62,027 nt of DNA from Candidatus Jorgensenbacteria bacterium GW2011_GWA1_48_11 (GTDB lineage: Bacteria > Patescibacteriota > Minisyncoccia > UBA6257 > GWB1-50-10): positions 5,486-67,512 of the forward strand of contig LCPF01000005.1 of NCBI GenBank assembly GCA_001003475.1, read 5' to 3'. The first letter of the stretch is position 1; each line of letters begins with the position of its first letter. The position numbers and the translations under genes were made by a program. The notes beneath the pieces are model-generated. The model was not told the DNA's origin. It ran no database searches and saw only the letters and a list, made by a program, of their open reading frames with translations. Positions 5,717-55,186 of this stretch are shown here, one piece after another.

Positions 5717-5787
5717 CGGGCTGTAGTATACCGGTAGTACGCATGCATGGGGTGCATGTAGACCGGGTTCGATTCCCGGCAGCCCGA
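5717..5787 (+). tRNA. tRNA-Pro (anticodon GGG), CCA not encoded
   Basis: Hand fold: acceptor CGGGCTG/CAGCCCG (7 bp); D arm GTAT-ACCGGTA-GTAC; anticodon arm CATGC-ATGGGGT-GCATG (U33, GGG, G37); 4-nt variable region; T arm CCGGG-TTCGATT-CCCGG; discriminator A. Confidence 0.8.
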
Positions 5788-34961: not shown

Positions 34962-36695
34962 TCACGCAACTTCTGATTGATAGCACTGCTCGCAATAGAC
35001 GATTTCTTTCCTGTCCGATGAATAGGGAGTTTCAAATTCGTTGGAGCAGTGACGAGAACCATGGAAATGTTTAACGGTATTCCGATAGCCCCCGCCTTCG
35101 GCCGCTTCGCCGCCACAGCGGCAATTACTTTTCCATAAACGATTGGGACCGCGCGCCGTAAATCTGCGGCTATGCCGGCAGTCGGGACAGAACCGCGGCA
35201 ACGGAATTTCCAGTTTCTTATAAAAATCAAATTCATTGGGAATGATGAGATAATTTTTCTTGCAATTCAGGCAACTAAAAACCTGCCCGGGCACGTCAAG
35301 ATCGCCGATATCTTTTATCGAATCGGGAATTTTATCCCAAGAAACCGTTTCTTTGCCGTAAGTGCCGCGCGGATAATCCTCCCATTTGTAGCCTTTGTCC
35401 GCCGCCTCATCTTTGATCAACGGAAACTGTTCAATCGCCGCTGATTCGTTATAACCGAAAGTGCTTACGTCCGCTGGGAAAAATTCGCCGTATTCCCCTC
35501 TTTTTTTCATGTCTTCAATGATCCGATTTTTCAACCTATCGTAAGAATCTTTATCGTATTGCTTGTTCAAAATGCAGCGATTCTTATTGCGAAGGCCGAT
35601 TGAACCAAAGCAATTATTCGAATCGAAACAATAAAAAGAGTAACTCATGAAAGTACACGTCCAACAAGTGCTCGAACAAATATAATTTGCCGTATCGATG
35701 CCGCAATTCATCGAATTGTAAATCATCTCGGCGCCCCGGCCGGCTGTATCGCAATCGACGCAATCCTTAGCGTTACGCCAGATATGGACGCCGTATTTGG
35801 AATTTTCGGCGTCATAGCAGTGGAAACAATAACGGCAGCTTTTGGCATTGTTGATGTAATTACCGCTGCAACCGGGCGCCATCACGATTTCGGCAAATTT
35901 ACGGGGTTGAACGGCGATAAATTCCCGGAATTTTTTTCCCATTTCTTGAACACCGTTATAAGTATCTAACCCGGCTTCAGCCAAAAATTTCTCGTATTCG
36001 GCTTTAGTTTTCTGCTCATTCCAAATGCAATATTTTTTCTGTCGTAAATTAACGCAGCCGATGCAATCGGAACAGCCGCGACAATCCAACAAAAAATAGC
36101 CGTCATTGCAGTTCTCGCAACCCTTGCTGTAGAAAAGGCGGTAAGAACCGTAGCAATCGTCGCTTTCATAAGAAAGCTCGGTTTTGTGGGAAAAAGAGAC
36201 ATCAATAAGGTCCTTGCACTCCTGAATCCAGTAACAATGAGTGCAGTTTTCGTTATTCGAAGACTCAACGATCATGTAGCAATTCTTGTTGTCGGCAGAA
36301 ATATTGACGTATTCGGAATTCACGCTCCGAACATAGATGAGCGAAAGTTTGGGAATTTCTTTCCACAAATCCTCAAATTGACCGAAAAAAGACTTCTCGG
36401 GATCATAATCACGGCCGCAATCAACGGGATTCCATTTGTCCGAAAACCAGCAATCGTGACAATAAACCGTGTAGGGCTTATTCGGACTGTACATCGAAAT
36501 ATGCTCCTTACCGCACAAATCACACTTGCGCTTATAGAAAACGCGCTCGTTTCGGAACATTAATCTTCTTTGCGCCCGGCAAAGCGGGCACATTTTCGGC
36601 GCTGGTACGCCGAACTTGTCATAGAAAGCGAAATCATCGGTTTCTACCCGAAAATCCTGACGGCACTGAAAGCATTTTTTAATTTCGTTTCTCAT
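34962..36695 (-). CDS. Cys-rich multi-zinc-ribbon repeat protein, array member P1
   Basis: 577 aa with 43 Cys (hand count). Contains CFQCRQDF..FYDKFGVPAPKMCPLCRAQRR, CDLCGKE..VYCHDCW, two L-R-x-K-x-x-C-I-x-N modules, and CLNCKKNY..FYKKLEIPLPRFCPDCR. The tail is EIVYCEQCYQSEVA. Confidence 0.85.
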   Translation of the reverse strand: MRNEIKKCFQCRQDFRVETDDFAFYDKFGVPAPKMCPLCRAQRRLMFRNERVFYKRKCDLCGKEHISMYSPNKPYTVYCHDCWFSDKWNPVDCGRDYDPEKSFFGQFEDLWKEIPKLSLIYVRSVNSEYVNISADNKNCYMIVESSNNENCTHCYWIQECKDLIDVSFSHKTELSYESDDCYGSYRLFYSKGCENCNDGYFLLDCRGCSDCIGCVNLRQKKYCIWNEQKTKAEYEKFLAEAGLDTYNGVQEMGKKFREFIAVQPRKFAEIVMAPGCSGNYINNAKSCRYCFHCYDAENSKYGVHIWRNAKDCVDCDTAGRGAEMIYNSMNCGIDTANYICSSTCWTCTFMSYSFYCFDSNNCFGSIGLRNKNRCILNKQYDKDSYDRLKNRIIEDMKKRGEYGEFFPADVSTFGYNESAAIEQFPLIKDEAADKGYKWEDYPRGTYGKETVSWDKIPDSIKDIGDLDVPGQVFSCLNCKKNYLIIPNEFDFYKKLEIPLPRFCPDCRHSRRFTARGPNRLWKSNCRCGGEAAEGGGYRNTVKHFHGSRHCSNEFETPYSSDRKEIVYCEQCYQSEVA

Positions 36696-36734
36696 GCGAT
36701 TTCCGCGTTATCCTTCAACGTAGCTCAGGATCAA

Positions 36735-38528
36735 TCAGACGACCTCTGATTGATAGCATTGTTCGCAATATACAATTTCCGGCCGGTCCGGCGCATAGGA
36801 CGTCTGTACCGTGTTCGGACAAGGGCCGTCACCGTGGAAATGTTTCACCGTGTTCATATATCCTCCTTTGTCCGATTTCGCGCCGCCGCACTCGCACATC
36901 CGGTCAAAAAGCTTTCGCGGCAAGAGCTTCGCCACGCGGTCCTTATGGCGCTGGAGCGGTGCGCGGCGCGGGAGCGGCAAACCCATTCGCCGGTAGAACG
37001 CGAGTTCCATCGGAATTATTTTATACGGCTTCGCACTTACTTCGCATTTCAAAACCTTCTCCAGCACATCATCCTTCACGTCCTTAATGTCATCAGAGAT
37101 TTCATACTCCGAAAACTGCACATTCATTTCCGATTCGTAGTCGCTCCACGTATAACCTTGCGCAAGTGCCTCATCACGTGTGAGTAGGTAATAGTCCATC
37201 GCCGCGGTTTCGTTGTATCCAAAAAGTGAGAGGTCGGCCGGGAAAAATTCTCCGTAACGATACTCCCTGCCGAGCATATCCACGTAGGGCACCTTCATCA
37301 TTTGGTCGCGTATCTCCGCAACTTTTGTGCGGTATTCTTCTTCCGAGTATTGTTTATTCAATATGCAGTTTTTCTTATTCCGAAGCCCCACGCATCCAAA
37401 ACAATCCTCACAATCCGCAATCGCAAAACAGTACTCCAAATTAAAGGAGTGGGCCTGTTTCAGTGGGTCCGTCCCCATACAATAAGAAACAAATTTGGAA
37501 TTGTAGACTCCTCCCCCACTTGAACATTCGTAGCTAAGCTCTGCGGCACCGTGGGAAGTTTCGTCATAACTATCCTTTATCCACCCTGAGATGAAGAGGA
37601 ATTTTGAATCTTCCACTTTCTCACTATCGAACACGTAGCGTGCATTTTTAGACTCGTTGATGTTGTTGCCTGTCGAGTTTACCGACTTGAAAATCGCGCT
37701 GTAACGACGTGGTATCGAGTGCCATACTGGCGTAGCTTTTTCCCGCAACTCCGCTGCTGCGGTATGCGACGAGATCGGGTGTGCCTTAAAAAAATCATCA
37801 TATTCCTTTTGGGAAACCTGCTTGTTGAAGAGTACGTATTTCTTATTTCGAAGACCCGCACTTCCGATGACGTTTGTGCAGTTGCGGCAATCGATGGAGA
37901 AAAACACGTCCTGACAGTCAAAACAATCACGCGAGAAAAACACGCGATAGCATCGCATACATCCGATATTTTCGTAACAAAACTCACTATTCAAAAGCCA
38001 GTGATTATCAAAGGAATCCTTCCCGTATAGTTCGTAAGTGTTGTATGCGGAATCTTGGTTGTAATGGCCTCCAACATTCAGATAGCAATTTTTGTCGTCC
38101 GTTTCCTGGTTCACCCAATCACTGTTCACCACATTCCCGTTATACATGGAAACGTGGGGCACCAAATGGAGTAGCTTCTTGTACTGAGCGAAGAACGGCC
38201 GCTGCGGATCAAAATCCATTCCGTATGAAAGCACGTCCCATTTGTCCGAGTGCCAACAGTCACGGCAGTACGTGGGATATGGCTTGTCGGGCGAGATACG
38301 CGATACCACTTCTTTCCCGCATAGATCACACTTCCGTTTGTAGAGCGAGCGCTCATTCCGAAACGCAATTCGCCGTTTCTCGCGACACTCGGGGCAAAAC
38401 GTCGGCGGCGGCACTTGGATTTTTTCATAAAACGCGAAGTCTTCCGGTTCGATGACGAATGAACCATGACAGTTTTGACAGGTCGAAGACACTGAGCCTG
38501 TCGAATGTGTTTTAGTTTCAGAATTCAT
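36735..38528 (-). CDS. Cys-rich multi-zinc-ribbon repeat protein, P2
   Basis: 597 aa. CQNCHGSFVIEPEDFAFYEKIQVPPPTFCPECR and CDLCGKE..TYCRDCW. The tail is EIVYCEQCYQSEVV. The C-proximal ribbon has lost its Cys residues (LPRRAPLQRH). Confidence 0.85.
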   Translation of the reverse strand: MNSETKTHSTGSVSSTCQNCHGSFVIEPEDFAFYEKIQVPPPTFCPECREKRRIAFRNERSLYKRKCDLCGKEVVSRISPDKPYPTYCRDCWHSDKWDVLSYGMDFDPQRPFFAQYKKLLHLVPHVSMYNGNVVNSDWVNQETDDKNCYLNVGGHYNQDSAYNTYELYGKDSFDNHWLLNSEFCYENIGCMRCYRVFFSRDCFDCQDVFFSIDCRNCTNVIGSAGLRNKKYVLFNKQVSQKEYDDFFKAHPISSHTAAAELREKATPVWHSIPRRYSAIFKSVNSTGNNINESKNARYVFDSEKVEDSKFLFISGWIKDSYDETSHGAAELSYECSSGGGVYNSKFVSYCMGTDPLKQAHSFNLEYCFAIADCEDCFGCVGLRNKKNCILNKQYSEEEYRTKVAEIRDQMMKVPYVDMLGREYRYGEFFPADLSLFGYNETAAMDYYLLTRDEALAQGYTWSDYESEMNVQFSEYEISDDIKDVKDDVLEKVLKCEVSAKPYKIIPMELAFYRRMGLPLPRRAPLQRHKDRVAKLLPRKLFDRMCECGGAKSDKGGYMNTVKHFHGDGPCPNTVQTSYAPDRPEIVYCEQCYQSEVV

Positions 38529-38558
38529 GGAATTTCAATATTATGCTAATAACAAAAC

Positions 38559-40253
38559 TTACTCGAATTCTGCCCTATATTCATCAATGCTCCAAACTTT
38601 TCCGGGAGCATCGGGTGAATAAGAACTCATTATCGTTTTTCTCGATTTATCGCTTTTCCGTTCATAAAAATGGTAAGAAGTGGCCATTTTATGCCGCCTT
38701 TCGTTCCTTTCAAAGAAAGATTCTCTTGGAAGCGGAATCTTGTGTTTTCTGTAAAAGTTCAATTCCCTCTCAATAATTCGGTATTTTCTGGCTGATGATT
38801 TCGAAAGGATTGTTTTATTTAAAATATCATCACTAACGTCAAAAATACTATCGGGTAAATTCTCAGCCGATACGAAATCATCGGAATCTTCCATTTGAAC
38901 CGGCTCTGCCCAACGAAAGTTTTCATTCAATGCGTCTTCTTTAGTCAAGGGGTAAAGGGATTGAGCAGCGCTATCGTTATAGGGAAAATAAGAAAGCTCA
39001 AGGGGCGGATGATCGCCGAAAACGTATTTCTTCCCAAGCTTATCAACGTACGGCATGTCGTCCATATGCCGCTTAATTCTTGGCAAAAGATCAAAATATT
39101 CTTCTTTGGTATATTGCTTGTTCAAAATACAATATTGGGCATCTTTCAGACCGCTACAACCAAAACAATTCTTACTCCTATTTACGTGATTAAGATAACA
39201 AGAGTCCTGGCAATACCAGGCCCACAGGCTGCCGACGATATTCGAAGAAAAAGCTACGACGCTCGAATCGTATACTAATTCCGATCCCCCTCCCGCATCA
39301 GTATCCTGCATGTCTTTTGCGCCATCGGAATGATCGCCGTATTTATAGTTCTCGCTGTTCAGGGTTATAAAACAGTATTTGCAGTTGCGGCTGTTGTATA
39401 CCAGATCACCAAAACAATCATTGCAACCAACCATACGCAAAGCTTTTCTGGGTTGATCCCACAAAATCGGTTCAAGTTCTTTTTTCGCCCGTTCCGTCCC
39501 GGAATAAGTGTGAAGCGCATATTGCTTCATTATTCCTTCATAACGTTCCTTACCTATTGGTTTATTCCGGAAACAATAAGATTTGCCCCGCAAACCGGTA
39601 CACATGAAACAGTCATTGCAATTTTTGCAATCGTAACAAAAAGCACAATCGGAACATCCCGTCGATTCGTAAACGTAACGGCATTGATAACAATGCTCGG
39701 TATTGACCGTTTCATAATTACCCTCGTCTTTACCAAAACTCGTATGGACATCAATAAGATCTTTACCGCTCACCGCATAGAATGAATACATGACATTTTC
39801 CAGCTTCCAGGCCGTTATAACCAGATAACAGTCCTTACTCATGGACAAATCGTTACTGTACATGCAATTCACACTCAAAAGGCCATCATCCGTATCTGTC
39901 GACGGCTTGGGAACATTTCGTAGAAGCTCCGCGTACTGGGCAAAAAAGGGTTTCGAAAAATCGTATGCCTGACCGTAATCAAAAGCATTCCATTTATCGG
40001 AATGCCATTCCTTGGGTGAATATAGCTTAATTCCAGAATCTGGTGCGTAAACCGAGATCACCGAAGCACCCGTCAAGTCAGATTTCCGTTTATAAAGGTT
40101 GACCAGGTTCCGCCAACCCGAACGGCGTTGCCGACGACACTCCCAGCAAAAAGTTGGAGCCGGAACTTTCATTTTCTCATAGAACCCAAAATCTTCAGGT
40201 TCTATCACGAACGATTGTTTGCAGTTTTGGCATCGGCGGGTTTCCTGATTCAT
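38559..40253 (-). CDS. Cys-rich multi-zinc-ribbon repeat protein, P3 (C-terminal ribbons degenerate)
   Basis: The start MNQETRRCQNC overlaps the P4 stop (ATGA). The second ribbon is lost (SDLTGAS...LYSPKEW). The C-terminal tail has no Cys (KVWSIDEYRAEFE). Confidence 0.8.
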   Translation of the reverse strand: MNQETRRCQNCKQSFVIEPEDFGFYEKMKVPAPTFCWECRRQRRSGWRNLVNLYKRKSDLTGASVISVYAPDSGIKLYSPKEWHSDKWNAFDYGQAYDFSKPFFAQYAELLRNVPKPSTDTDDGLLSVNCMYSNDLSMSKDCYLVITAWKLENVMYSFYAVSGKDLIDVHTSFGKDEGNYETVNTEHCYQCRYVYESTGCSDCAFCYDCKNCNDCFMCTGLRGKSYCFRNKPIGKERYEGIMKQYALHTYSGTERAKKELEPILWDQPRKALRMVGCNDCFGDLVYNSRNCKYCFITLNSENYKYGDHSDGAKDMQDTDAGGGSELVYDSSVVAFSSNIVGSLWAWYCQDSCYLNHVNRSKNCFGCSGLKDAQYCILNKQYTKEEYFDLLPRIKRHMDDMPYVDKLGKKYVFGDHPPLELSYFPYNDSAAQSLYPLTKEDALNENFRWAEPVQMEDSDDFVSAENLPDSIFDVSDDILNKTILSKSSARKYRIIERELNFYRKHKIPLPRESFFERNERRHKMATSYHFYERKSDKSRKTIMSSYSPDAPGKVWSIDEYRAEFE

Positions 40254-41956
40254 GCGATTTCCTTGAGATAACACTGGCGGCAAAAGACTTTTGCGGCTTC
40301 TTCCTCGTTATAAGGCGACTCCATGCTCTTGCCGCAACCGGCGCAGACGCGCGGATTACGGCTGTTATCTTTTACCCAGATATTGAGTTTCTCATTTATC
40401 CGGCAATGGGGGCATTCCCGCGACAAAGGCACGTTCATCTGCCGATGGAAAGCCAATTCCATTTCTATTATCCGGTAGGCCCGGCCGCAATTCGAACAAG
40501 CAATCTTTTCCTTAAGAATCGAATCCGGCGTTTCTTTTATGTGATCCGGCAGATCGGCGGCTTTGATGGTCCTTTCGTACTCGCTCTGCTCACTTTCCCA
40601 CCAGCCGTATTTTTTCGCCAAGGTTTCGTTTTTCGTCAAAGGAAAAAAATTCTGGGCCAGCGTCACATTATAAGCATAAGGCGAAAATTCCGGCGGGAAA
40701 AATTCGCCGTAGCGATATACATTCCCCCGAGCATCAACAAAAGGCTTATCATTCATTTGTTCAATGATCCTGGCTCTAAGTTTTTCGAAATCTTCCTTCG
40801 AATACTGTTTGTTGAAAATGCAATAATTTCCCCTCTTCACCGAAACGCAGCCAAAGTGATGGGCGCCGCCCGTTGAAGACTTGCAATATTGGGCATCAGA
40901 AAGATTAGTCCCCAGCTCATGAGAAAAGAATACGAGCGTCGAATTCTCGCCGAGTACGCCGCTTTCGTAAGAAAGTGAGAGGTTGTCGCCCCACATCGAA
41001 ACGTCATAACAGTCCTTATTGGAGGGCCCCCACATCCGGAATAAGTAACGGCAGTCCTCGGCGTTATAAACCTCAATGCAATCTTTGGCGTTCTTGGAAA
41101 AGAAAACGTTAGGCCCCGTGCAATTTTCGGCGAATTCATTGTATTCGGACTTGGGTATCTGCGTTTGCCAATGCTTTTCCGCTTTTTCTTGAACTGTCTT
41201 GTAAACCTTATAAGAGCCCAGATCGTACTTCCCTATTTCTTTGAAATAATCCTCCTTTGAATATGGCTTGTTAAAAATATAATATTTCTTGTTTTTCAGG
41301 TTGGCCGAGCCGAAACAGTTCTGGCAATTTTGGCAATCGCGGCAAAAAACGCAATCGACCGATTCGGAAAGCTGGTGACGCGAACCGATGCAACGATTTG
41401 TCTTATAAGAATGCATCGAATCATAACCCATTTGACTCTCCATTATGGCCGTACAGTCAAACATCGTCTGACTGTAACCAATGTAATAGCCGTAAGCGCA
41501 ATCTTCATTGTAATTTGCCTGGAATAAAAGATAGCAATTCTTCGAATGACCGATGTCGTGATTGAAAGGCGAATTTTGAACGGTTACCAGGTCAGCCGAT
41601 AAGCCCAAAAGCGGAACCTCATGCCACAATTCGTTCAACTGCTCGAAAAAGGGTCGACCGAAATCATAGTTGCGGCCATAAGATAAGGGATCCCAATTAT
41701 CAGACCACCAGCAGCTGGGACAATAAACTTTGTAAGGCACATCTGACGGATAAACGGAAATGTTGAGTTTATGGCATAGATCGCAGGTTCGCCGATAAAG
41801 GGTTATCGGATTCCAAAAAAGCAACCGCCGCTGGAACCGGCAATCCGGACAAAAAGTCGGCGGCGGGACTTGGATTTTCCCGTAGAAATCGAAATCCTCG
41901 GGATCGATGACGAAATCTCGTTTACAATTCTGGCATTGGCGAGTTTCTTTGTTCAT
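40250..41956 (-). CDS. Cys-rich multi-zinc-ribbon repeat protein, P4
   Basis: MNKETRQCQNCKRDF..FCPDCR, CDLCHK..VYCPSCW, and the shorter tail CAGCGKSMESPYNEEEAAKVFCRQCYLKEIA. Confidence 0.85.
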   Translation of the reverse strand: MNKETRQCQNCKRDFVIDPEDFDFYGKIQVPPPTFCPDCRFQRRLLFWNPITLYRRTCDLCHKLNISVYPSDVPYKVYCPSCWWSDNWDPLSYGRNYDFGRPFFEQLNELWHEVPLLGLSADLVTVQNSPFNHDIGHSKNCYLLFQANYNEDCAYGYYIGYSQTMFDCTAIMESQMGYDSMHSYKTNRCIGSRHQLSESVDCVFCRDCQNCQNCFGSANLKNKKYYIFNKPYSKEDYFKEIGKYDLGSYKVYKTVQEKAEKHWQTQIPKSEYNEFAENCTGPNVFFSKNAKDCIEVYNAEDCRYLFRMWGPSNKDCYDVSMWGDNLSLSYESGVLGENSTLVFFSHELGTNLSDAQYCKSSTGGAHHFGCVSVKRGNYCIFNKQYSKEDFEKLRARIIEQMNDKPFVDARGNVYRYGEFFPPEFSPYAYNVTLAQNFFPLTKNETLAKKYGWWESEQSEYERTIKAADLPDHIKETPDSILKEKIACSNCGRAYRIIEMELAFHRQMNVPLSRECPHCRINEKLNIWVKDNSRNPRVCAGCGKSMESPYNEEEAAKVFCRQCYLKEIA

Positions 41957-43698
41957 ACGATTTCGCTGTTGTAACACTGCTCGCAATAAACATTTTTGAA
42001 TGTTGCCGGATCATGAGCTGACTGGATTTTAATTCCGCATTTTATGCACTTTCTCTCATAAAAAGTCATACTGATATCATATACTTCCCGAAAACGCTTT
42101 AATCGCACCGTTGGATGCTCGCGGGTCAAAGCAATATTATGACGTCTGTAGAAATCCAATTCGTATTTCATGACCCGGAATGGTTTCTGGTTTTTCTCAT
42201 CGAAAATTATCTTGTCCAAAATATCATCTTTCACGTCCTTAATGCGATTCGGTAACTCTGACGACGTTATTATCTCTCCCTTAGTTTCGCTTTCCGGCAC
42301 CGGCGTTTCCGAAACATCATAACCGCATTTTCCGGCATTTTCATAATCGCTAAAACCGGGATAAGAATTGGCAAATGAAAGTTTATAGGGCACCGTCATC
42401 AATTCGGGCGGGAAGAACTCGCCGTATAATCCATTTTTAAGCATACCCGTCTTGATGTCGTCAACAATATTCCAATAATCATCTTCCGTATACTGCTTGT
42501 TAAGGACGCAGAACGATTTATTGTCCAGACCGATACAGCCAAAACAATCATGGCAGTTTTTGCAAAGATCGCAATATTCCATATTTCTACTGTTGTCAAT
42601 TTGCGAAGAAAAAAAGACGCGATAGTTATTGGCGGTACTAACAGTACTAAGTTCATAGCAAAGTTCGCCGCCGCCGCCGCCAAAAAGGTCGTATGAATCC
42701 TTATAGCCAAAACAACCCAAAGAATAATTAACGTTATCGCTGTTATAAAGAAAACCGCTGAAATAACAATTGCGAGAATTCTCCAGCCAATCGCCGTAGC
42801 AATTGACCGATCGAAAATTGTGATCCGGCTTGTAATGCGCGTCTTCCTTCAATTTTCCGTATTCCTGAAGCAAGTCTTCCAATTTGCGGAAATCACCCAA
42901 GTTAATAGATTTTAACTTTTCATAATATTCTTCCGGCGAATAAGATTGATTGCGGAAATAGAACTTTTTATTCCTCAGGCCCGAGGACATAAAACAGTGA
43001 CTGCAATTGCGGCAATCAAAAAGAAAAAAGTTCTCCAGGCAATTTTTTGATTGCTCACAAAATAAACAACGAAATGAATCATAAAGCGCCTGGGACCGAT
43101 AACAATTGTCGCAATTCCATAAACTGTCGCAATCAACGCAATCCCGGCTGCCATCGCAACATTGAAAATAATAAAGGTTTTCCCCGCTTAAAGTGTCAAA
43201 AGTCAGATAACAATTCTTAAGATGGGTGGACATATTCGAATAATCGCTGTTGAAATTAGTCGAATCAGTCACAAGATTGGGACGCGGCATCGCAAGTTGA
43301 AGACCGCGGAAATTCCCGAAAAAATCCTGCGATTCATCCCAAACCCGCCCATAACCGAACGGATCCCACTCATTCGAGAACCAAACCTGGTGTTCAAAAA
43401 TCTTATGCGGTGTTCCGGGCGGATAAGCGGCGAGAACCTGCTTTCCGGAAAAAGCGGATTTTACCCAAAATAGATTGTAAGAATTTTGATAAGAGGCGCG
43501 CCGCCGCCACCGTTCTTTCGTTTTTATCGTCGGCAACGGCACTTTTAGTTTCTTATAAAAACCTATATCTTCCGGCCGAACGTAAAATTTTTCGCCGGAA
43601 AAGCGGCAAATTCGCCATTGCCCGCCTTGTTCATCAAGTTTCAAACCGGCGAAATAATCATTAATGGCTTTATCAAATTTGGGAGTTTTTGAGGTCAT
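41953..43698 (-). CDS. Cys-rich repeat protein, P5 (N-terminal ribbons degenerate)
   Basis: The module backbone is kept (FYVRPEDIGFYKKLKVPLPT), but the CxxC pairs are replaced (CRFSGEKF, IKTKERW, SAFSGKQ, IFEHQVW). The tail is KCIKCG...VYCEQCYNSEIV. Confidence 0.8.
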   Translation of the reverse strand: MTSKTPKFDKAINDYFAGLKLDEQGGQWRICRFSGEKFYVRPEDIGFYKKLKVPLPTIKTKERWRRRASYQNSYNLFWVKSAFSGKQVLAAYPPGTPHKIFEHQVWFSNEWDPFGYGRVWDESQDFFGNFRGLQLAMPRPNLVTDSTNFNSDYSNMSTHLKNCYLTFDTLSGENLYYFQCCDGSRDCVDCDSLWNCDNCYRSQALYDSFRCLFCEQSKNCLENFFLFDCRNCSHCFMSSGLRNKKFYFRNQSYSPEEYYEKLKSINLGDFRKLEDLLQEYGKLKEDAHYKPDHNFRSVNCYGDWLENSRNCYFSGFLYNSDNVNYSLGCFGYKDSYDLFGGGGGELCYELSTVSTANNYRVFFSSQIDNSRNMEYCDLCKNCHDCFGCIGLDNKSFCVLNKQYTEDDYWNIVDDIKTGMLKNGLYGEFFPPELMTVPYKLSFANSYPGFSDYENAGKCGYDVSETPVPESETKGEIITSSELPNRIKDVKDDILDKIIFDEKNQKPFRVMKYELDFYRRHNIALTREHPTVRLKRFREVYDISMTFYERKCIKCGIKIQSAHDPATFKNVYCEQCYNSEIV

Positions 43699-45461
43699 AC
43701 CACTTCGGCGTTGTAACACTGCTCGCAATAGACGATCTCCGATCTTTCGGACGAATAAGCCGTCTTGAATTTATTGGGACAGCGGCCAGTCGGATGGTGG
43801 GGATGGCTAACGATATTTTTGTGGACTTTATAATCGCAAAGGCATTGCCTCTCCCAAAGCTTTAAGGGATTACGGCTTCGAAAACGCTGATAATGACGGC
43901 AGCTAGGACATAATCTCGGCAACGGAACGTTCATCCGCCTATAAAGATTAAGCTCGTCCGGAATAATTCGGAAGGCTTTAGTGCAATATTCATTGCGCTT
44001 CCCATCGTGCAAACAAGCGATGATTTCTTTCGTAATTTCATCTTTCGCGTCTTTTATGTGGTCTGGTAATTCGGCGGCGTTGACGGTCGGCTTATAATCA
44101 TGGCTTTCTTCTTTCCCCCACCGATATCCTTTTTTCTCTGCTTCTTCGCGGGTTAAGGGATAAAAATCTTTGGCCGTAGACGTGTTATGGGCAAAAAGCG
44201 ATATTTCCGGCGGGAAAAATTCGCCGTATTGGTAAGCCAAACCCCTTTTATCCACGTAAGGCATTTCGGTCATGTGCTTTATTATCCTAAGCACCAGTTC
44301 TTCGTATTCCTGTCTGGAATACTGCTTGTTCAGAATGCAATATTGTTTCTTACGCAAAGACACGCAACCGAAGAGATCGCTCACGCCATTCCGGCAGGAC
44401 TGCGAATAAGAAACGCTTCTCGCTTCAGGCCAAACGTCGGCAGAAAGCTTAACGTCGTAGGCGTGAACGCCAGTCGTCGAACATTCGTAACATCGCTCCA
44501 TAACACAACAACCATTATTGACGTCGTAAATATCCTTAGCATTAAATAAAAGCATGCAGAAACGGGAGTCTTCGGTGTCGCTGGTAAAAAAACAATCCTT
44601 GCAGTTCTTTGTATTGCCCAGGGAATCGCCGGTTGAATCGACGATATGGTTATCGATTATGAACTTATATAAAGACTTCCTTTTAATTTCGTTGAATTCG
44701 AATTCATATTCCCGCAATTTTGCATACGAACCCGTATCAATTTGCGCCATTCTCGCTTTATATTCCTCTTTAGAAAGCTGCTGATTTTTAAAAACGTAAG
44801 ACTTATGCCTTAGATTCGTGCTCATAAAGCAGTTTTGGCAGCCCTTCAAATCAAAGCCGAACACCACATCCAAGGAATCATGGCAGCGATCGGCGAAGAG
44901 CATACGGGCCGAATCCATTGACTGCAGGGTTTGATAACAAAACTGGCAACGAATCGCGGCGAAAGCGTCAACTACGCTTTTGGAATTCAAAATCCGATAA
45001 CCGTATTGGCAATCTTCGCAGTCTGAACCGGAAGTCAAAAGATAGCAATTCTTGCAGTCGGTAATTTGGTTGCAATAATCGCTGTTCGTACTTCTGTCTA
45101 TCTGCAAAGCGATCTGCGGCGTAACCTGCATCAAATCGCTGAATTGGCTGAAAAATGGGCGTGAAAAATCATAATCCCGGCCATAAGCCAAAGCGTCCCA
45201 ACCGTCAGAATACCAGCAAGCGCGGCAATATACCGGAAACGAAACGTCAGCCGGGTACATGGCAATGATCTCTTTTTTACACAGATCGCAGTGCCGTTTA
45301 TAAAGGGTCTGATCATCACGCCACAACAACCGCCGAATAAGCCGGCACTCCGGACACCAGGTCGGTGGCGGGACATCTATCTTTTTGTAAAAATCAAAAT
45401 CCTCCGGTTCGATCCAAAATTCTTGATGACAGTTTTGGCATTTTCTTGATTCTCTGTTCAT
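43695..45461 (-). CDS. Cys-rich multi-zinc-ribbon repeat protein, P6
   Basis: MNRESRKCQNCHQEF..WCPECR, CDLCKKE..VYCRACW. The tail is EIVYCEQCYNAEVV. The ORF track's 48-codon upstream extension is not homologous to the other members. Confidence 0.85.
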   Translation of the reverse strand: MNRESRKCQNCHQEFWIEPEDFDFYKKIDVPPPTWCPECRLIRRLLWRDDQTLYKRHCDLCKKEIIAMYPADVSFPVYCRACWYSDGWDALAYGRDYDFSRPFFSQFSDLMQVTPQIALQIDRSTNSDYCNQITDCKNCYLLTSGSDCEDCQYGYRILNSKSVVDAFAAIRCQFCYQTLQSMDSARMLFADRCHDSLDVVFGFDLKGCQNCFMSTNLRHKSYVFKNQQLSKEEYKARMAQIDTGSYAKLREYEFEFNEIKRKSLYKFIIDNHIVDSTGDSLGNTKNCKDCFFTSDTEDSRFCMLLFNAKDIYDVNNGCCVMERCYECSTTGVHAYDVKLSADVWPEARSVSYSQSCRNGVSDLFGCVSLRKKQYCILNKQYSRQEYEELVLRIIKHMTEMPYVDKRGLAYQYGEFFPPEISLFAHNTSTAKDFYPLTREEAEKKGYRWGKEESHDYKPTVNAAELPDHIKDAKDEITKEIIACLHDGKRNEYCTKAFRIIPDELNLYRRMNVPLPRLCPSCRHYQRFRSRNPLKLWERQCLCDYKVHKNIVSHPHHPTGRCPNKFKTAYSSERSEIVYCEQCYNAEVV

Positions 45462-45630
45462 GGGTTTTTGTCCCGATTCCTTTGGAATCGCGGATCCTCG
45501 ATTTTGTATTCTCGCTTCGCAAGGACAAAATCGGGACAATTCTGGCAGTTTTTCGTCTCGGTTAAACTCATTTGAATACAAATATAGACCAGTCGGCGTT
45601 CCCATTAACGCTTCTCTTGCAAGCTTTTCC

Positions 45631-45936
45631 TCAACGAACGGTTTCCGCCATCAATTCCTTATAAGGACGGTTTATCCGATAAACGTTAAAGGAAGCAATA
45701 CAAGGAATGCCGCCCTTGAGTTCAGCCGCGAGCAGGTCCTCGATCTCTTGAAGCTTCTTTTCCAACGTCCTGATAAGAACAACCGCTCCCTCGCCTTCCC
45801 GGCATTCGTCTTTCCAGCAAAAAGCGGAATGAGCCGGCCAGGCATTCACGGCGCTCGCCAATCTCCTGTTAATGATAACTTTCCCGATCCTCTTCGCCTC
45901 ATCCATATTGGGACAAGTCGTGTAAATAAGAATCAT
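45631..45936 (-). CDS. cutA: Divalent-cation tolerance protein CutA
   Basis: 101 aa. MILIYTTCPNMDEAKRIGKVIINRRLASAVN...WKDE...E matches the CutA1 pattern as I recall it. Confidence 0.75.
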   Translation of the reverse strand: MILIYTTCPNMDEAKRIGKVIINRRLASAVNAWPAHSAFCWKDECREGEGAVVLIRTLEKKLQEIEDLLAAELKGGIPCIASFNVYRINRPYKELMAETVR

Positions 45937-45997
45937 GATTTGAATAATTATTGATCGGCCTTTATATAATTTAAACCCCTATTCGCATAAGTATCAA

Positions 45998-49563: not shown

Positions 49564-51326
49564 ACCACTTCAGCGTTATAGCATGCTTCGCAGTAGACGA
49601 CTTCTTTTCTCTCCAGGGAATAGGAAGTTTCAAATTCGTTAAGACACCTACTATCAAGATGATGTTGGTGCTTAATCGAGTTTTCATAAACCTTATAATC
49701 ACACATACACTGTCGGTGCCAGAGCTTGATCGGATTATACAAGGCGCGCCGTTCTCCCCTCCTGCAACCGGCACAAAGCCTGGGAATGGGTATTTCCGTT
49801 TTGCGGTAAAATTGAAGCTCTTGAGGAGTTATCTTGAACGCCAAGGTGCAGTTATGCCCGCATTCCTGCTTGTGTCCGCATCCGATAACCTGATCCAAAA
49901 TCTCGTCCTTTATCTCTTCGATCGAATTTGGAATCTCTTCTGCCTTTAAAGTAACTTGGTGTTCCCTTGCGGCCGACTCCATCCAGCCGTACCCAAGACG
50001 AATCGCATCGTCTCTCTTGATCGGGAAATAAAATTGAGTCAGCGCTTCATTGTACGCGAACGGCGAAAATTCAACTGGAAAAAACTCGCCGTATTTATAA
50101 ACATTGCCTTTCAAATCAATATGGGGCTTGTCGCTCATTCCTTTTATTATCCTCTCCTGAAGCGATTCATATTCATCCTTATCGTACTGCTTGTTCAAAA
50201 TGCAGTATCGCTTGTTCCGAAGGCCGATGCAGCCGAAAAGATCCTGACTGACGCGACAATAATCGCAATATTGCAAGCGGGCACAATTTTCAAACGTATT
50301 GGTGGAAAAAAAGATATTTGAATCGAGATAGCCAACATTCACGCCCTCATAAAGAAGGGATGATTCCTTATCGCCCACCCCGTACATGTCCTGAACGTCT
50401 TTAGCGCGGCTCATTTGGGCGCCGTATTTCACGTCCTCGCAATTATGGGAATTGAAGCAATATTTTGCATTCTTGCAATAAGTCAGATTGCTGCCGGAGG
50501 AATTCGTGCATTTAACCATATTTGCGTACTTATGAAGCGCATTCTCCCGCAGACGGACGTACTCCGAATACAACTCTATTTGAATTTTGTAACCCCGGTC
50601 CATGGCAGACATCCTTTTGCGATATTCTTCTTCCGTAAGCTGCTCGTTGCGAAAGACAAATTTCTTATTGCGCAAATTGCTGCTCATGAAACAATTCGAC
50701 GAATTACGGCAATCGAAAAGGTACGAACCGTCCAAACAGTCCTTGCAATCGGATATGAATTTGCAGTTTACGCAGTGCTCTGAATCCAAAGCCTCATAAA
50801 TGCTTTCGGAACCCATAACCACCATGGAATCGAACGCATCTCGGCAATTCCATGCGCTTTTGGAATAAGAGACATTGTCGGAACTGATTGTAGACGGCGA
50901 AAGATATACGTTTTTGGAAAACCAGGTGTAATCAGAATAAGGCGAGTTTTCGTTCTGATAGGCTTCCAGGCTCGGTCTGGGCACCGTATCTGAAAGCTCC
51001 TTCCACTGAACGAAGAAGTTCTTATTCGGGTTGTAGTCGCGGCTGTATTCCATCGGGTCCCACTTATCCGACCACCAGCACTCGTTGCAATAGACGGGAA
51101 ACATCACTTTGCTTGAATGGTGGGAAAGCGTTTCCTTGCCGCAAAAGGCGCACTTGCTTTTATGCATATTGAATTCGTTCCGGAAAAGCATTCTTCTTTT
51201 CATCCGGCACTCCGGACACCAAGTAGGCGGCGGGACTTTTATACGTTCATAGAACTGAAAATCCGAAGCTTCTATTTCAAAAGAGGTTTTACAGTTCTGA
51301 CAGATTATTGTTTCAGCATTAGCCAT
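49560..51326 (-). CDS. Cys-rich multi-zinc-ribbon repeat protein, P9
   Basis: MANAETIICQNCKTSF..WCPECR, CAFCGKE..VYCNECW. The tail is EVVYCEACYNAEVV. The start is taken at M13 of the track ORF. Confidence 0.85.
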   Translation of the reverse strand: MANAETIICQNCKTSFEIEASDFQFYERIKVPPPTWCPECRMKRRMLFRNEFNMHKSKCAFCGKETLSHHSSKVMFPVYCNECWWSDKWDPMEYSRDYNPNKNFFVQWKELSDTVPRPSLEAYQNENSPYSDYTWFSKNVYLSPSTISSDNVSYSKSAWNCRDAFDSMVVMGSESIYEALDSEHCVNCKFISDCKDCLDGSYLFDCRNSSNCFMSSNLRNKKFVFRNEQLTEEEYRKRMSAMDRGYKIQIELYSEYVRLRENALHKYANMVKCTNSSGSNLTYCKNAKYCFNSHNCEDVKYGAQMSRAKDVQDMYGVGDKESSLLYEGVNVGYLDSNIFFSTNTFENCARLQYCDYCRVSQDLFGCIGLRNKRYCILNKQYDKDEYESLQERIIKGMSDKPHIDLKGNVYKYGEFFPVEFSPFAYNEALTQFYFPIKRDDAIRLGYGWMESAAREHQVTLKAEEIPNSIEEIKDEILDQVIGCGHKQECGHNCTLAFKITPQELQFYRKTEIPIPRLCAGCRRGERRALYNPIKLWHRQCMCDYKVYENSIKHQHHLDSRCLNEFETSYSLERKEVVYCEACYNAEVV

Positions 51327-51376
51327 ATCTTTCAGAATAAACCAAGCGAAGTCCAGCACCAAGCTTTGCTTTGGTG

Positions 51377-51442
51377 CTATAATTCCGGCTCAATCTTGAA
51401 CCGCTCTTTACAACTTTGGCATTGGCAAGTTTCCTGATTCAT
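51377..51442 (-). pseudogene. 21-codon 5' remnant of an additional array member
   Basis: MNQETCQCQSCKERFKIEPEL-stop. Its ATG overlaps the P10 stop as ATGA, exactly as in intact members. Confidence 0.65.
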
Positions 51443-53214
51443 ACCACTTCAGTGTTATAGCATGCCTCGCAGTAAATTATCTCTTTTCTTTCTGGCGCAT
51501 AGGACGTCTCAAATTCATTAAGACACTTGCTTTCACCGTGAGAATGCTTCGCGGTATTTCGATAGTTGCCGTTTTCGGAACTATTCCCGAAACATTGACA
51601 TTTTCTCTTCCAAAGCCGGAAAGGGTTCCTCAACCGAATCCTCTCGGAATTCCTGCAATTAGGACAAAGCCGAGGCAAAGGAACTTTAATCTGCCTATAT
51701 AAAGCTAGTTCGGTCGGAATAAGACGAAATGCAAACGTACACCCGTCTTCACACGAGCCTTTGTGAGCACATTCTATGGCTTTTTCCAATATCGAATCCG
51801 GCACGTCTTTAATATTATCCGGAAGTTCATTATTTCTCATAGTTACGGCATATTGACGTTCTCCCCGCTCAAACCAACGCAAGCCATTCTCCATCGCTTC
51901 TTTTTCAGTCATACGGAAATATTCATAAGCAACGGTTTCGTTATAACCAAAAGGAGACAATTCCGAGGGGAAAAATTCCCCATAGCCATAAACCCTACCC
52001 CTCGCATCTTTATAGGGCATTTCATTCATATGTTTAATGATTTTCGGGACTAAAATTTCGTACTTCTCTTTGGTATATTGCTTATTCAAAATGCAATATT
52101 CCTTATTTTTGACGCCAACACAACCAAAAATATGAGAAGAGCTAAAACAATTAATCGAGTGTTTCACGTCATGGGAATTAAGAATAATCCAAGAAGCGAT
52201 AACGTTATTGCCCGGATAAATGCTCATAGAATCATAAATCATCTCGCTTTTCGCGCCGGCATGACCAATACTGTAAGAATCTTTAATTCCGCCAGCGACA
52301 AGCAGAAGATACCGACAGTTTTCGGCGCCATCGAAAACATCAAAAGAATAGAAACAGTTCTTAGAGTTATAAATATTATCGCCGGAAGACTGGACGGAAT
52401 TGATTATCCGGTAAGGTCGAAAAATCGATCTTTTTCGCAGATCTTCAAACTGTTTTTTAAAATCTTCGCTCTGCTTATAACTACCAAAATCAATGCCTTT
52501 GATTTTTTCCGCATACTCCTCGGGAGAATAGGAGTGATTTAGAATTGAGTATTTTTGATTACGCAAATTAATGCAACCCAGACAATTCTGGCAATTACGC
52601 AGTTCAAAACCGAAACGGACGTCCAAACACGAATCAAGGTAACGCCCGAACGAAGTCCGATAATTATTCTCCGAATCAATCAATTCATAACAGAGCTCCC
52701 CTTTGTTAACCCAATAAAGATCGGCACTATTCTTCGTGTAAAAATTGTAACTACTGTACTCCGAATCTTCGTTCCAATCGCCGCCGAAAATAAGATAACA
52801 ATTTTTATTGCCCACGGAAAAATTGCAAAAATCGCTGTTAACCGCATCCCAGTTATTCATTGCGGAAAAAGGCACCTCCCGTATCAATTCTTTTATTTGC
52901 TCAAAAAACGGGCGTGAAAAATCGTACTCCCGGCCATAATCCATGGAGTCCCAAGAATCCCCGTTCCAATCATGCTGTTTCAAAACTTGAATATCCTTAT
53001 CCGGAGAATAGATGGAAATAATTTCTTCACCGGTCTGAGGATATCTTCTTTTGTATAAATTTCGGGCGTTGCGAAAACTCAAATGGCGCTGCCAACGGCA
53101 GAGCGGGCAAAAGGTCGGCGGCGGGACTTGGATTTTCTCAAAAAATGCGGAATCTTCGGGTTCTATGACGAATGAACCATTACAATTCTGACACTCACGA
53201 GTTTCTTGAACCAT
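51439..53214 (-). CDS. Cys-rich multi-zinc-ribbon repeat protein, P10
   Basis: MVQETRECQNCNGSFVIEPEDSAFFEKIQVPPPTFCPLCR. The second ribbon is lost (YPQTGEE...VLKQHDW). The tail is EIIYCEACYNTEVV. Confidence 0.85.
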   Translation of the reverse strand: MVQETRECQNCNGSFVIEPEDSAFFEKIQVPPPTFCPLCRWQRHLSFRNARNLYKRRYPQTGEEIISIYSPDKDIQVLKQHDWNGDSWDSMDYGREYDFSRPFFEQIKELIREVPFSAMNNWDAVNSDFCNFSVGNKNCYLIFGGDWNEDSEYSSYNFYTKNSADLYWVNKGELCYELIDSENNYRTSFGRYLDSCLDVRFGFELRNCQNCLGCINLRNQKYSILNHSYSPEEYAEKIKGIDFGSYKQSEDFKKQFEDLRKRSIFRPYRIINSVQSSGDNIYNSKNCFYSFDVFDGAENCRYLLLVAGGIKDSYSIGHAGAKSEMIYDSMSIYPGNNVIASWIILNSHDVKHSINCFSSSHIFGCVGVKNKEYCILNKQYTKEKYEILVPKIIKHMNEMPYKDARGRVYGYGEFFPSELSPFGYNETVAYEYFRMTEKEAMENGLRWFERGERQYAVTMRNNELPDNIKDVPDSILEKAIECAHKGSCEDGCTFAFRLIPTELALYRQIKVPLPRLCPNCRNSERIRLRNPFRLWKRKCQCFGNSSENGNYRNTAKHSHGESKCLNEFETSYAPERKEIIYCEACYNTEVV

Positions 53215-54666: not shown

Positions 54667-54667
54667 A

Positions 54668-55186
54668 TTAAAGTATTTCCAGTTCCTTGAGGAAGGCTTC
54701 GTAAGTGTCCAAAATCTCATTGGCGTCGTGGGGCTTGATCTCGTAATCGGGCGTGTGAACCAATTCATTCCTGATCTTATGAACCCGCCAAAGCTTGTCC
54801 AGCGTTTTGAAGTCGTCGGTGGTCAAACGCTCCAACCGATCGGCCATATGCTCGCCCCTGATGCCCAATTGTTTCAAGGCGTCGTCCGTAAATTTATCGG
54901 CCTCGATCACCGCCATAAGATAGGACTGCGGCGGATTGGTTTTGGCCTTGCCGCGAATGGCTTGCCAGCGCTTCAAAAAGATCGGATTCTTGAGAATCGT
55001 CTTTTTGGCGATGCCGGCGGGATTTTTCACGAAAACAGGACGATAATGCAAGGCTTTTATAAAAATAAAGATAAAGAAAACAAAAAGCAGAATGTCGATG
55101 AAAATGACAACCTCCCTGACGGCATAATAAATGCTTACCCAGGGAATCTGCAAAAAATAATCGTAAATTTGAACGAAAACAGCCAT
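54668..55186 (-). CDS. Membrane protein with a C-terminal helical domain carrying an R-x4-H motif
   Basis: TM helix VVIFIDILLFVFFIFIFI, and C-terminal WRVHKIRNELVHTPDYE. Confidence 0.55.
   Translation of the reverse strand: MAVFVQIYDYFLQIPWVSIYYAVREVVIFIDILLFVFFIFIFIKALHYRPVFVKNPAGIAKKTILKNPIFLKRWQAIRGKAKTNPPQSYLMAVIEADKFTDDALKQLGIRGEHMADRLERLTTDDFKTLDKLWRVHKIRNELVHTPDYEIKPHDANEILDTYEAFLKELEIL

Follow-up and report, generated by a model that had tools for sequence, protein, structure and literature searches.

Introduction

TmAFP, the antifreeze protein of the beetle Tenebrio molitor, is a small, secreted protein built on the repeat TCTxSxxCxxAx. Invariant disulfides between Cys(i) and Cys(i+6) hold its coils together, Cys2 of the repeat being joined to Cys8, and it displays a TxT ice-binding face. 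In Bartonella, arrays of Bep effectors are encoded beside virD4. For the Patescibacteria, a 2025 survey reported tandem arrays of VirB2 pilins and 5,713 VirD4-like homologues of type IV coupling proteins (T4CPs), of which 148 lie near virB4, and left the function of these homologues open (PMC12102498). Here we describe a locus that recalls each of these systems in part. The window, a stretch of 62,027 nt from Candidatus Jorgensenbacteria bacterium GW2011_GWA1_48_11 (GCA_001003475.1, contig LCPF01000005.1, positions 5,486-67,512), contains ten tandem paralogous genes, P1 to P10, that encode large cysteine-rich proteins and are neighboured on both sides by VirD4-like ATPases. All positions below are those of the whole stretch.

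The tiny genome of this ultra-small bacterium, a member of the Patescibacteria, devotes 18 kb to ten copies of one protein type. The present analysis gives the family a domain map, a fold prediction, a test based on sequence statistics that separates metal sites from a Cys-packed interior, and a genetic partner. The conserved partner consists of orphan VirD4-like ATPases, the role of which in the phylum is an open question (PMC12102498). A family of hypothetical proteins is in this way turned into a testable hypothesis.

Module architecture of the array proteins

Positions 34962-53214 of the minus strand are fully occupied by ten open reading frames (ORFs) in the same orientation, of 574-636 residues as called. 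Their products can be aligned end to end, with a mean column identity of 49% and 28-42% identity to P1. P1 contains 43 Cys in 577 residues, exactly the number counted by hand in the initial annotation of this interval, and the other nine paralogs contain 25-37. The same annotation had summarised the proteins in seven consensus motifs. Relaxed forms of these motifs match all ten paralogs, whereas the literal patterns match none to three of them, save for the seventh, which is found nearly literally in seven. The motif described as closing each core occurs exactly twice in every paralog.

Each protein is composed of eight modules in the order N1-R2-core A-linker-core B-middle-N1'-R2', the last two being designated C6 and C7. 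In P1, N1 (residues 1-50; 36546-36695, minus strand as for all modules of P1) is a PF13451-like zinc ribbon with the pattern C8-x2-C11-x24-C36-x2-C39. It is followed by R2 (residues 51-100; 36396-36545), a treble-clef finger with C58-x2-C61-x17-C79-x2-C82 and then W-x-S-D-x-W. Core A (residues ~125-228; 36012-36323) is predicted to be a β-solenoid of ~8-9 coils, each 12 residues long, in which every third residue is Cys or Ser, and core B (residues ~273-380; 35556-35879) to be a homologous β-solenoid. The two are connected by a helical linker (residues 229-272; 35880-36011). Core B is followed by a cap helix and an acidic middle strap (residues 381-467; 35295-35555), which carry the motifs Y-G-E-F-F-P, Y-N-E-[ST], P-L-T-K-E-E-A and L-P-D-x-I-K-D; across the ten paralogs the strap has a net charge between -4 and -14. 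The second PF13451-like ribbon, C6 (residues 468-519; 35139-35294), with C475-x2-C478-x24-C503-x2-C506, is basic (net charge +4 to +10). Finally, C7 (residues 520-577; 34965-35138) combines an R2-like treble clef (C550...C568-x2-C571) with an added site, C525-x-C527...H543-x-H545.

Homology between modules was assessed with hhalign, comparing profile with profile from sub-alignments cut out of a 70-member family alignment. N1 (1-50) matched C6 (468-520) with E=2.5e-18 and a probability of 99%, and the two modules share the C-x2-C-x24-C-x2-C spacing. R2 (51-100) matched C7 (520-577) with E=3.9e-9 and a probability of 96%, and core A (101-240) matched core B (265-400) with E=3.8e-35 and a probability of 99.9%. 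Six unrelated module pairs, used as controls, gave E values of 0.0085-0.42 and probabilities <5%. These comparisons show the two predicted ribbons, the two fingers and the two predicted solenoids each to be a homologous pair. They confirm both the similarity of the N- and C-terminal modules and the internal duplication of the core that had been proposed from the letters alone. The protein had also been read as an ancient internal duplication framed by homologous ribbons. The framing and the homologous pairs stand; however, the order of the modules rules out an origin by a single tandem duplication of a ribbon-ribbon-core unit.

Averaged over all pairs of the ten paralogs, identity is highest in N1 (0.56), followed by C7 (0.44), R2 (0.41), the middle region (0.39), core B (0.38), C6 (0.37) and core A (0.35), and the linker is the least conserved segment (0.22). 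The cores are thus modestly more variable than the best-conserved termini (0.35-0.38 versus 0.44-0.56), and the earlier idea of a diversifying core between conserved ends is correspondingly weak.

Predicted fold of the cores

P1 was modelled with AlphaFold2 from the 70-sequence alignment, and core A was also modelled separately. The full model has a predicted local distance difference test score (pLDDT) of 88 and a predicted template modelling score of 0.87, and no segment falls under a pLDDT of 50. Both cores are β-solenoids in which strands recur every 12 residues (185/197/209/221 and 348/360/372), and a helix follows each of them. Confidence is lower in the first half of core B and at residues 140-160 (pLDDT ~61-73). 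The middle strap has little regular secondary structure and is modelled at pLDDT 89-96, except for the block 441-450 (77). The isolated core A (pLDDT 83) is all-β, with periods of 6 and 12. Structure prediction thus yields a confident, ordered fold, in keeping with the solenoid-like core envisaged in the initial annotation.

Consensus motifs are spaced at 12-residue steps along the core: K137-N-C-Y140, E149-[DN]-x-x-Y153, K161-D-x-x-D165 and E173-L-x-Y176. Self-alignment of the cores in search of 12-residue sequence repeats gave only a weak shift of 45 residues (E=7e-4, probability 27%), so that the coils appear too degenerate to be detected as sequence repeats.

Foldseek searches of the PDB with the full model and with the isolated core returned no match at E<=0.001. 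All the weak matches are β-solenoids, namely hexapeptide-repeat enzymes, pentapeptide-repeat proteins, pectate-lyase-like helices and TmAFP, with E values of at least 0.006 and query-normalised TM-scores of at most 0.12 for the full model and ~0.25 for the isolated core (0.31 for one designed repeat protein). When the family profile was searched against PDB sequences, only chance matches appeared (influenza M1, E=0.16), and the N1/C6 profile found nothing there. On the strength of the model and the profile comparisons, we hold the predicted architecture and the solenoid fold with high confidence. The Cys-bearing position of each triplet would point into a very narrow bore; this orientation, like the handedness and the other side-chain orientations, is inferred.

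Terminal ribbons and fingers

Conservation and co-occurrence of Cys were analysed in an alignment of 275 family members. The four Cys of N1 are 97-100% conserved, and the ligand residues of C7 are ~98% conserved where the segment is present. All four R2 ligands are found in 121 sequences and none or one in 146; two or three are found in only 8, compared with 181 expected under independence, and the phi coefficient of their association is 0.99. About half of the family has lost all four R2 ligands yet retains the motifs of the fold. The C6 ligands co-occur with phi values of 0.77-0.90, C7a behaves in the same way as R2, and 215 sequences have the whole CxC/HxH set while 51 have none of it. Because ribbon ligands are either near-invariant or lost as complete sets, the ribbons can be taken as genuine metal sites. 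In their statistics the terminal Cys/His sets behave as real structural sites, presumably for zinc, some of which are dispensable as units. On this basis five metal sites are predicted in each of P1, P6 and P9, four in each of P2, P4, P7, P8 and P10, and one in each of P3 and P5. The R2 set is gone as a whole from P3, P5, P7, P8 and P10.

Pfam and NCBIfam searches with the window paralogs gave sub-threshold matches only, to zf_Tbcl (PF13451), zf_Tbcl_2 (PF23477) and TIGR04272. Window members score 17.5 and 18.1 bits against PF13451, the gathering threshold of which is 24 bits; among 70 family members, 17 match this model (E<0.01; best 3.5e-6) and 9 match PF23477. Both N1 and C6 have the PF13451 layout, with CxxC pairs 24 residues apart, an aromatic F...FY segment and a second knuckle of the form C-x2-C-R. 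Against PF23477 and TIGR04272 the family reaches 15-21 bits, under the curated cut-offs of 27 and 36 bits. The C-x2-C-x17-C-x2-C spacing of the latter two models is present in R2 of P1, P2, P4, P6 and P9 and at the C termini of P4 and P5. In C7 of most members a single Cys replaces the first CxxC and a C-x-C...H-x-H segment is inserted, P4 and P5 having the classical short form. The R2/C7 profile weakly resembles the second finger of LIM domains (CRP/MLP; E=7e-4 to 0.04). A Foldseek comparison of the model with BFVD retrieved phage 'zinc-ribbon domain' proteins, which match the fold of N1 (probability 1.0, root-mean-square deviation 0.8 Å over 44 columns) and nothing but zinc-ribbon matches.

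Cysteines of the cores

In core A (residues 127-226) Cys accounts for 32.8% of the residues in one of the three phases of the triplet and for 0.2-0.4% in each of the remaining phases. The same distribution is seen in the C-terminal half of core B, with 31.8% in one phase versus 0.3-1.1% in the others. Small residues (C, S, A, G, T, V) make up 73% of the Cys phase, Leu 10% and charged residues 3.5%, compared with ~28% charged residues in the other phases. In the triplet, Asn or Asp predominates at phase 0 and Cys or Ser stands at phase 1, and phase 2 is mixed, with Tyr and Phe commonest (together ~23%). The [NDS]-C-[YF] anchor of the initial annotation is therefore real, but the units built on it, described as irregular and 10-22 residues long, are regular triplets within 12-residue coils. 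In the Cys phase the order of frequency is Cys, then Ser, then Leu or Val. The interchange of Cys, Ser and Asn that had been noticed between paralogs holds for Ser, a major substitute; Asn is a minor one, and Leu, Val, Thr and Ala are commoner.

Association between core Cys is weak. The maximum phi is 0.41, the top pairs stand at separations of 3, 9 and 12, and no pair at separation 6 is found among the top associations in the 275 sequences. In the last coil of core A, four, three and two Cys are present in 147, 93 and 31 sequences, compared with 140, 105 and 27 expected under independence. Core B is without a four-Cys coil, the Cys frequencies being 0.81, 0.19, 0.25 and 0.95. Ligand sets of metallothioneins, zinc knuckles or Fe-S sites would be expected to be conserved or lost together, and the core coils do not show this behaviour. 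The independence of the core Cys, set against ribbon Cys that are kept or lost as sets, favours a solenoid ladder over serial zinc knuckles, two possibilities that the initial annotation had left side by side. The core Cys are thus probably interchangeable packing residues that line a narrow solenoid, rather than ligands of a fixed cofactor or obligatory disulfide partners. Two observations weigh against this reading. Some core Cys are well conserved (C211 and C365 at 95%, C374 at 93%, C208 at 88%), and Cys retention in the P1 orthogroup is 0.80, compared with a regional mean of 0.69 for all residues. In some members C208, C211, C365 and C374 may have a local metal or redox role.

The ATPase cassette around the array

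Directly upstream of the array lies ATPase2 (53218-54768, minus strand), a soluble VirD4/TraD-like protein of the T4CP type (Pfam TrwB_AAD_bind, DUF87 and T4SS-DNA_transf; NCBIfam TraD and VirD4-like). A second VirD4/TraD-like ATPase, ATPase1 (32819-34642, minus strand; TrwB_AAD_bind E=5e-15), is encoded downstream of the array, and the two are paralogs that are ~43% identical. Residues 452-483 of ATPase1 (33194-33289, minus strand) form a C-terminal CxxC-x17-CxxC finger that matches zf_Tbcl_2 (PF23477; E=3.5e-16) and TIGR04272 (E=1.1e-16) at 59-60 bits, above the cut-off; R2 and C7 of the array proteins are fingers of this type too. Three further genes of the minus strand precede ATPase2. The cassette opens with a sigma-70 region 4 plus HARE-HTH protein (56766-57779). 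A DUF8128-type membrane protein of 463 residues with a hydrophobic N terminus comes next (55194-56585), and its orthologue at locus L001 carries PF26449. The third is a conserved small protein of 172 residues (54668-55186), with an N-terminal hydrophobic segment and no Pfam or NCBIfam match. Finally, a CutA1 gene (101 residues; 45631-45936, minus strand; PF03091, E=1.4e-17) lies within the array between P7 and P6.

The association of the family with these ATPases was examined from both sides. At 85 loci seeded on family genes, no specific neighbour recurs except a VirD4-like ATPase, found at 22 of them. It adjoins 7 of the 15 runs of three or more family genes, 3 of the 25 pairs and 8 of the 52 singletons. 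Other recurrent neighbours (DnaK, DnaJ, PGK, tRNA synthetases, FtsW, an ABC transporter) were considered and set aside as housekeeping synteny, each at 9 loci or fewer. In the reciprocal test, 80 metagenome loci (L086-L165), Hainich groundwater contigs among them, were seeded on ATPase2 orthologues that are 76-86% identical. Family genes are found downstream in 49 of the 59 loci having at least 1.5 kb of downstream sequence, in 41 of these within 700 nt, and DUF8128 is found upstream of ATPase2 in 53 of 57. CutA1 follows ATPase2, or lies within or after the arrays, at 7 genome loci and at ~30 of the 80 metagenome loci. The conserved unit can be written as HARE-HTH - DUF8128 - small membrane protein - ATPase2 - [CutA1] - [family genes, 0 to at least 10] - ATPase1. 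Across the 80 contigs the ATPase2 orthologues are far more conserved than the adjoining paralogs (~35-55%).

At two loci a DUF8128-like region is fused to the N terminus of a VirD4-like ATPase (L039:13029-15821, 931 aa; L050:1373-3757, 795 aa). These fusions suggest that DUF8128 and ATPase2 form a split coupling protein, of which the separate DUF8128 protein would be the detached membrane part. It is likely that this protein anchors the ATPase in the membrane.

From this evidence we regard a functional link between the family and the ATPase cassette as fairly likely. Several points speak against it. The ATPase2-seeded loci are close orthologues (identity of at least 76%) from one clade. At least five cassettes have the order ATPase2-CutA1-ATPase1 with no family gene between the ATPases, so that the family is not an obligatory partner in cis. 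Many family genes are solitary or paired amid housekeeping genes, far from any ATPase. A motif scan also found the finger of ATPase1 in only 2 of 31 related ATPases, and a shared zinc finger was for this reason rejected as a general link between ATPase1 and the array family. On one Giovannonibacteria contig (L003:2847-4634), a family gene stands between secY and adk in the conserved ribosomal-protein/secY/adk string, and a second copy follows pgk. The secY-adk placement hints at a housekeeping-level role of solitary copies.

The remainder of the window is ordinary chromosome, with genes for EF-G, MetRS, a class II tRNA synthetase, BipA, Obg, a DEAD-box helicase, ComEC, MnmA, EF-P, SecD/SecF and an M23 peptidase. 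No channel genes of a type IV secretion system (T4SS), such as VirB4 or VirB6, are seen in the annotation of the window. Rfam found nothing in the array region, its sole match in the window being a tRNA-Pro at 5717. Between 24001 and 32000 the G+C content drops to 0.38-0.43, compared with 0.45-0.55 elsewhere, over a run of ORFs in the same minus orientation. One ORF of this low-GC run (31388-32113) encodes an NAD-dependent epimerase, and the run may be a sugar or polysaccharide cluster. An ORF of 363 residues at 11199-12290 (plus strand) has no Pfam or NCBIfam match.

Genes of the array

The array is read from P10 to P1. P10 (51439-53214; 591 aa) starts 3 nt past the stop codon of ATPase2. P9 (49560-51362) is called with 600 residues and has a likely ATG at 51326. 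P8 (47776-49563; 595 aa) and P7 (45998-47779; 593 aa) are 54% identical and have both lost the R2 ligands. P6 (43695-45605) is called with 636 residues; from its likely ATG at 45461 it would have ~588. P5 (41953-43728; 591 aa as called, likely ATG at 43698), the most divergent paralog, retains only the classical C-terminal finger, and P3 (38559-40283; 574 aa as called, likely ATG at 40253) retains N1 as its sole predicted metal site. P3 and P5 have thus shed nearly all zinc ligands with their solenoid cores retained, and are possible metal-poor variants. Between them lies P4 (40250-41986; 578 aa as called, likely ATG at 41956), with a short classical CxxC-x17-CxxC C terminus. P2 (36735-38528; 597 aa) is without the C6 ligands. 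P1 (34962-36695), the paralog chosen for structure modelling, has a complete set of five predicted metal sites (N1, R2, C6, C7a and C7b).

The called starts of P3, P4, P5 and P9 (TTG) and of P6 (an upstream ATG) lie 5' of a conserved M-x-x-E-T start, and all five are probably too far upstream. With the likely ATGs, five gene junctions (P9/P8, P8/P7, P6/P5, P5/P4 and P4/P3) become 4-nt overlaps. The other intergenic gaps in the array measure 30, 39, 112 and ~536 nt, and the largest of them, between P7 and P6, contains the CutA1 gene. The 3-nt gap between ATPase2 and P10 and the 4-nt overlaps, which are typical of translational coupling, indicate a tight operon. The family genes are apparently co-transcribed with the ATPase machine and translationally coupled.

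Distribution and age of the family

A profile search retrieved at least 5,393 clusters (50% identity) at E<=0.001 and 2,345 at E<=1e-30. All the named matches belong to Patescibacteria, among them Paceibacteria/Parcubacteria groups, Liptonbacteria, Jorgensenbacteria, Giovannonibacteria and Nomurabacteria, and all are annotated as 'hypothetical'. Pfam and NCBIfam scans found no family for the full protein and no nuclease, protease, toxin, Fe-S or metallothionein domain. A scan of viral contigs gave one marginal match, at a contig edge, and a phage origin of the family was rejected for this reason. One member, P0250 (731 aa), has an N-terminal GNAT acetyltransferase domain (PF00583, E=3e-8). This single fusion, possibly an artefact of assembly or gene calling, was dropped as a functional clue. 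A literature search found no mention of the family and nothing relevant on DUF8128, PF13451/zf_Tbcl, TIGR04272 or cysteine-rich or solenoid families of the Candidate Phyla Radiation.

None of the ten paralogs has a hydrophobic segment or signal-like N terminus (maximum 19-residue hydropathy <=1.05), and each begins straight with its zinc ribbon. They are accordingly predicted, from their sequences, to be soluble and cytoplasmic.

Paralogs within the window share 30-54% of their residues, and their closest orthologues elsewhere 59-73%. Seven other arrays each contain a protein that shares 59-66% of its residues with P1, whereas the nearest paralog of P1 in the window shares only 40%. A similar gap is seen for P9 (67% outside versus 40% inside), P2 (60% versus 43%) and P4 (57% versus 40%). 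Since identity to other arrays exceeds identity within the window, the paralogs represent old orthogroups and not a recent expansion; P7 and P8 (54%) are the only pair resembling a more recent duplication. This pattern looks like long-standing specialisation rather than an arms-race expansion.

Discussion

We propose that the family proteins, of ~590 residues, are rigid, rod-like scaffolds. The zinc fingers at both ends would bind partners, either protein or nucleic acid, and the partner machine would be a membrane-tethered, split VirD4-like ATPase composed of DUF8128, the small membrane protein, ATPase2, ATPase1 and often CutA1. The old paralogs might differ from one another in specificity, or each might be a distinct subunit of a mixed assembly. 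Taken as a whole, from the architecture and the packing Cys to the ATPase link and the scaffold or adaptor role, this explanation has in our judgement a slightly better than even chance of being correct. The specific role as adaptor or scaffold is put forward only tentatively, and it counts against it that its basis is gene neighbourhood only. A bolder and more doubtful version is that the proteins are exchangeable parts, cargo adaptors or cargo, of an unrecognised translocation or assembly machine specific to Patescibacteria and built on orphan VirD4-like ATPases, with the solenoid as a new fold family. If such a machine exists, ~5,700 unexplained T4CP homologues of this phylum would gain both a context and clients.

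The arrays might instead encode effector-like cargo that is recruited by the VirD4-like ATPase and exported to the host cell of the episymbiont. We consider this unlikely. The Bep arrays offer a parallel, and the copy number between the two ATPases, which varies from 0 to at least 10, would suit a repertoire of cargo; the paralogs, however, are old and moderately conserved orthogroups, unlike fast-evolving effectors, and many copies stand in housekeeping contexts. Conservation extends to the very C terminus (...Y-C-E-x-C-Y-x-x-E-[VI]-[AV]), as cargo would allow, but a protein with up to five zinc sites and a pair of solenoids would not unfold easily for export. In a host-dependent phylum, the T4CP homologues of which are mostly orphan, close linkage in one operon with an ATPase of the coupling-protein type is compatible with export, although the window has neither VirB4 nor VirB6 and only the small minority of such T4CPs counted above is found near virB4 (PMC12102498).

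A second alternative, of still lower probability, holds that the Cys-rich cores bind metal, as serial zinc knuckles, as a metallothionein-like store or buffer, or as an Fe-S or Cu-thiolate chain, with CutA1 as a metal-related partner. With 25-43 Cys per protein and ~40 retained in the Cys-rich P1 orthogroup, thiols are certainly abundant, but they are freely exchanged for Ser, Leu, Val, Ala and Thr, and their strongest association falls far below that of the ribbon sites (phi 0.41 versus 0.99). The C-x2-C-x2-C-x2-C form of the last coil of core A, present in 147 of the 275 sequences, occurs about as often as independence predicts, as do the three- and two-Cys forms, and core B has no counterpart to it. 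CutA1, which is connected with divalent-ion tolerance, recurs in the cassette; against this stands the lack of any match to Fe-S or metallothionein families.

It is improbable that the cassette is an anti-phage defence system or the cargo of a mobile element, with the paralogs as sensors or effectors. Variable-copy arrays are typical of defence islands. The ATPases weakly match the defence-associated HerA and mad8 models and the sigma-70 region 4 protein matches MzaA, but the family itself has no PADLOC match, no nuclease, protease or toxin domain was found in it, and it is near-absent from viral contigs (the one marginal match). The surroundings are those of an ordinary chromosome (EF-G, tRNA synthetases, Obg, SecDF), and a cassette that is syntenic across 80 loci, with an ATPase 76-86% identical, displays housekeeping-like conservation.

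Lastly, that the cores are disulfide-stapled, extracellular β-helices of the TmAFP type, acting as surface adhesins or as ice- or mineral-binding proteins, is highly improbable: the two share a coil of 12 residues in which each third residue is small, and among the matches of the isolated core 1ezg ranks first by target-normalised TM-score (0.46), but that match is insignificant (Foldseek E=1.4), signal peptides and membrane segments are absent, zinc ribbons point to a reducing compartment, i/i+6 pairing of Cys is missing from the top associations and no TxT face is evident in the family consensus. The data favour none of these rivals, although export as cargo or a partial metal role may yet apply.

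Comparison with known systems

β-Solenoids and zinc ribbons are themselves well known; the eight-module architecture described here and its link to orphan T4CP homologues appear to be undescribed. As a genetic arrangement, the array resembles those on the virD4 side in Bartonella (bep) and the tandem VirB2 pilin arrays of Patescibacteria (PMC12102498) in that tandem, divergent paralogs stand beside a coupling-protein-type ATPase. Unlike the arrays of T4SS, it has no channel genes nearby, its coupling protein is split and duplicated, and its paralogs carry no domain of known effectors or pilins.

The terminal modules resemble known zinc fingers. N1 and C6 share with PF13451, which is described as a probable treble clef or zinc ribbon and has no function assigned to it, the layout C-x2-C...F-x-[IV]...F-Y...P...C-x2-C-R, but window members score under the threshold of that family, and the ribbon occurs twice per protein, framing two solenoids. 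R2 has exactly the C-x2-C-x17-C-x2-C pattern of PF23477/TIGR04272, a finger that is significant in the flanking ATPase1. The family scores under threshold, however, R2 has often lost its ligands, and C7 carries the CxC...HxH insert.

Among solenoids, the pentapeptide-repeat proteins (MfpA, Qnr, AlbG) and the hexapeptide β-helix proteins (GlmU, LpxD, γ-carbonic anhydrase) are likewise cytoplasmic and provide the top weak Foldseek matches. Their coils are of 20 and 18 residues, made of repeats of five and six residues respectively, whereas the array family has a 12-residue coil with a phase of three, and those repeat proteins have neither a Cys/Ser core nor zinc fingers at its flanks. TmAFP (PDB 1ezg/1l1i) likewise is a very narrow β-solenoid, built of 12-residue coils in which every third position is taken by a small residue (Cys, Ser or Ala). 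It differs in that the array proteins are predicted to be cytoplasmic, do not conserve their Cys positions in pairs and are without sequence homology to it. A cytoplasmic solenoid of 12-residue coils with a thiol-rich bore would, if true, stand out among the solenoid types known to structural biology.

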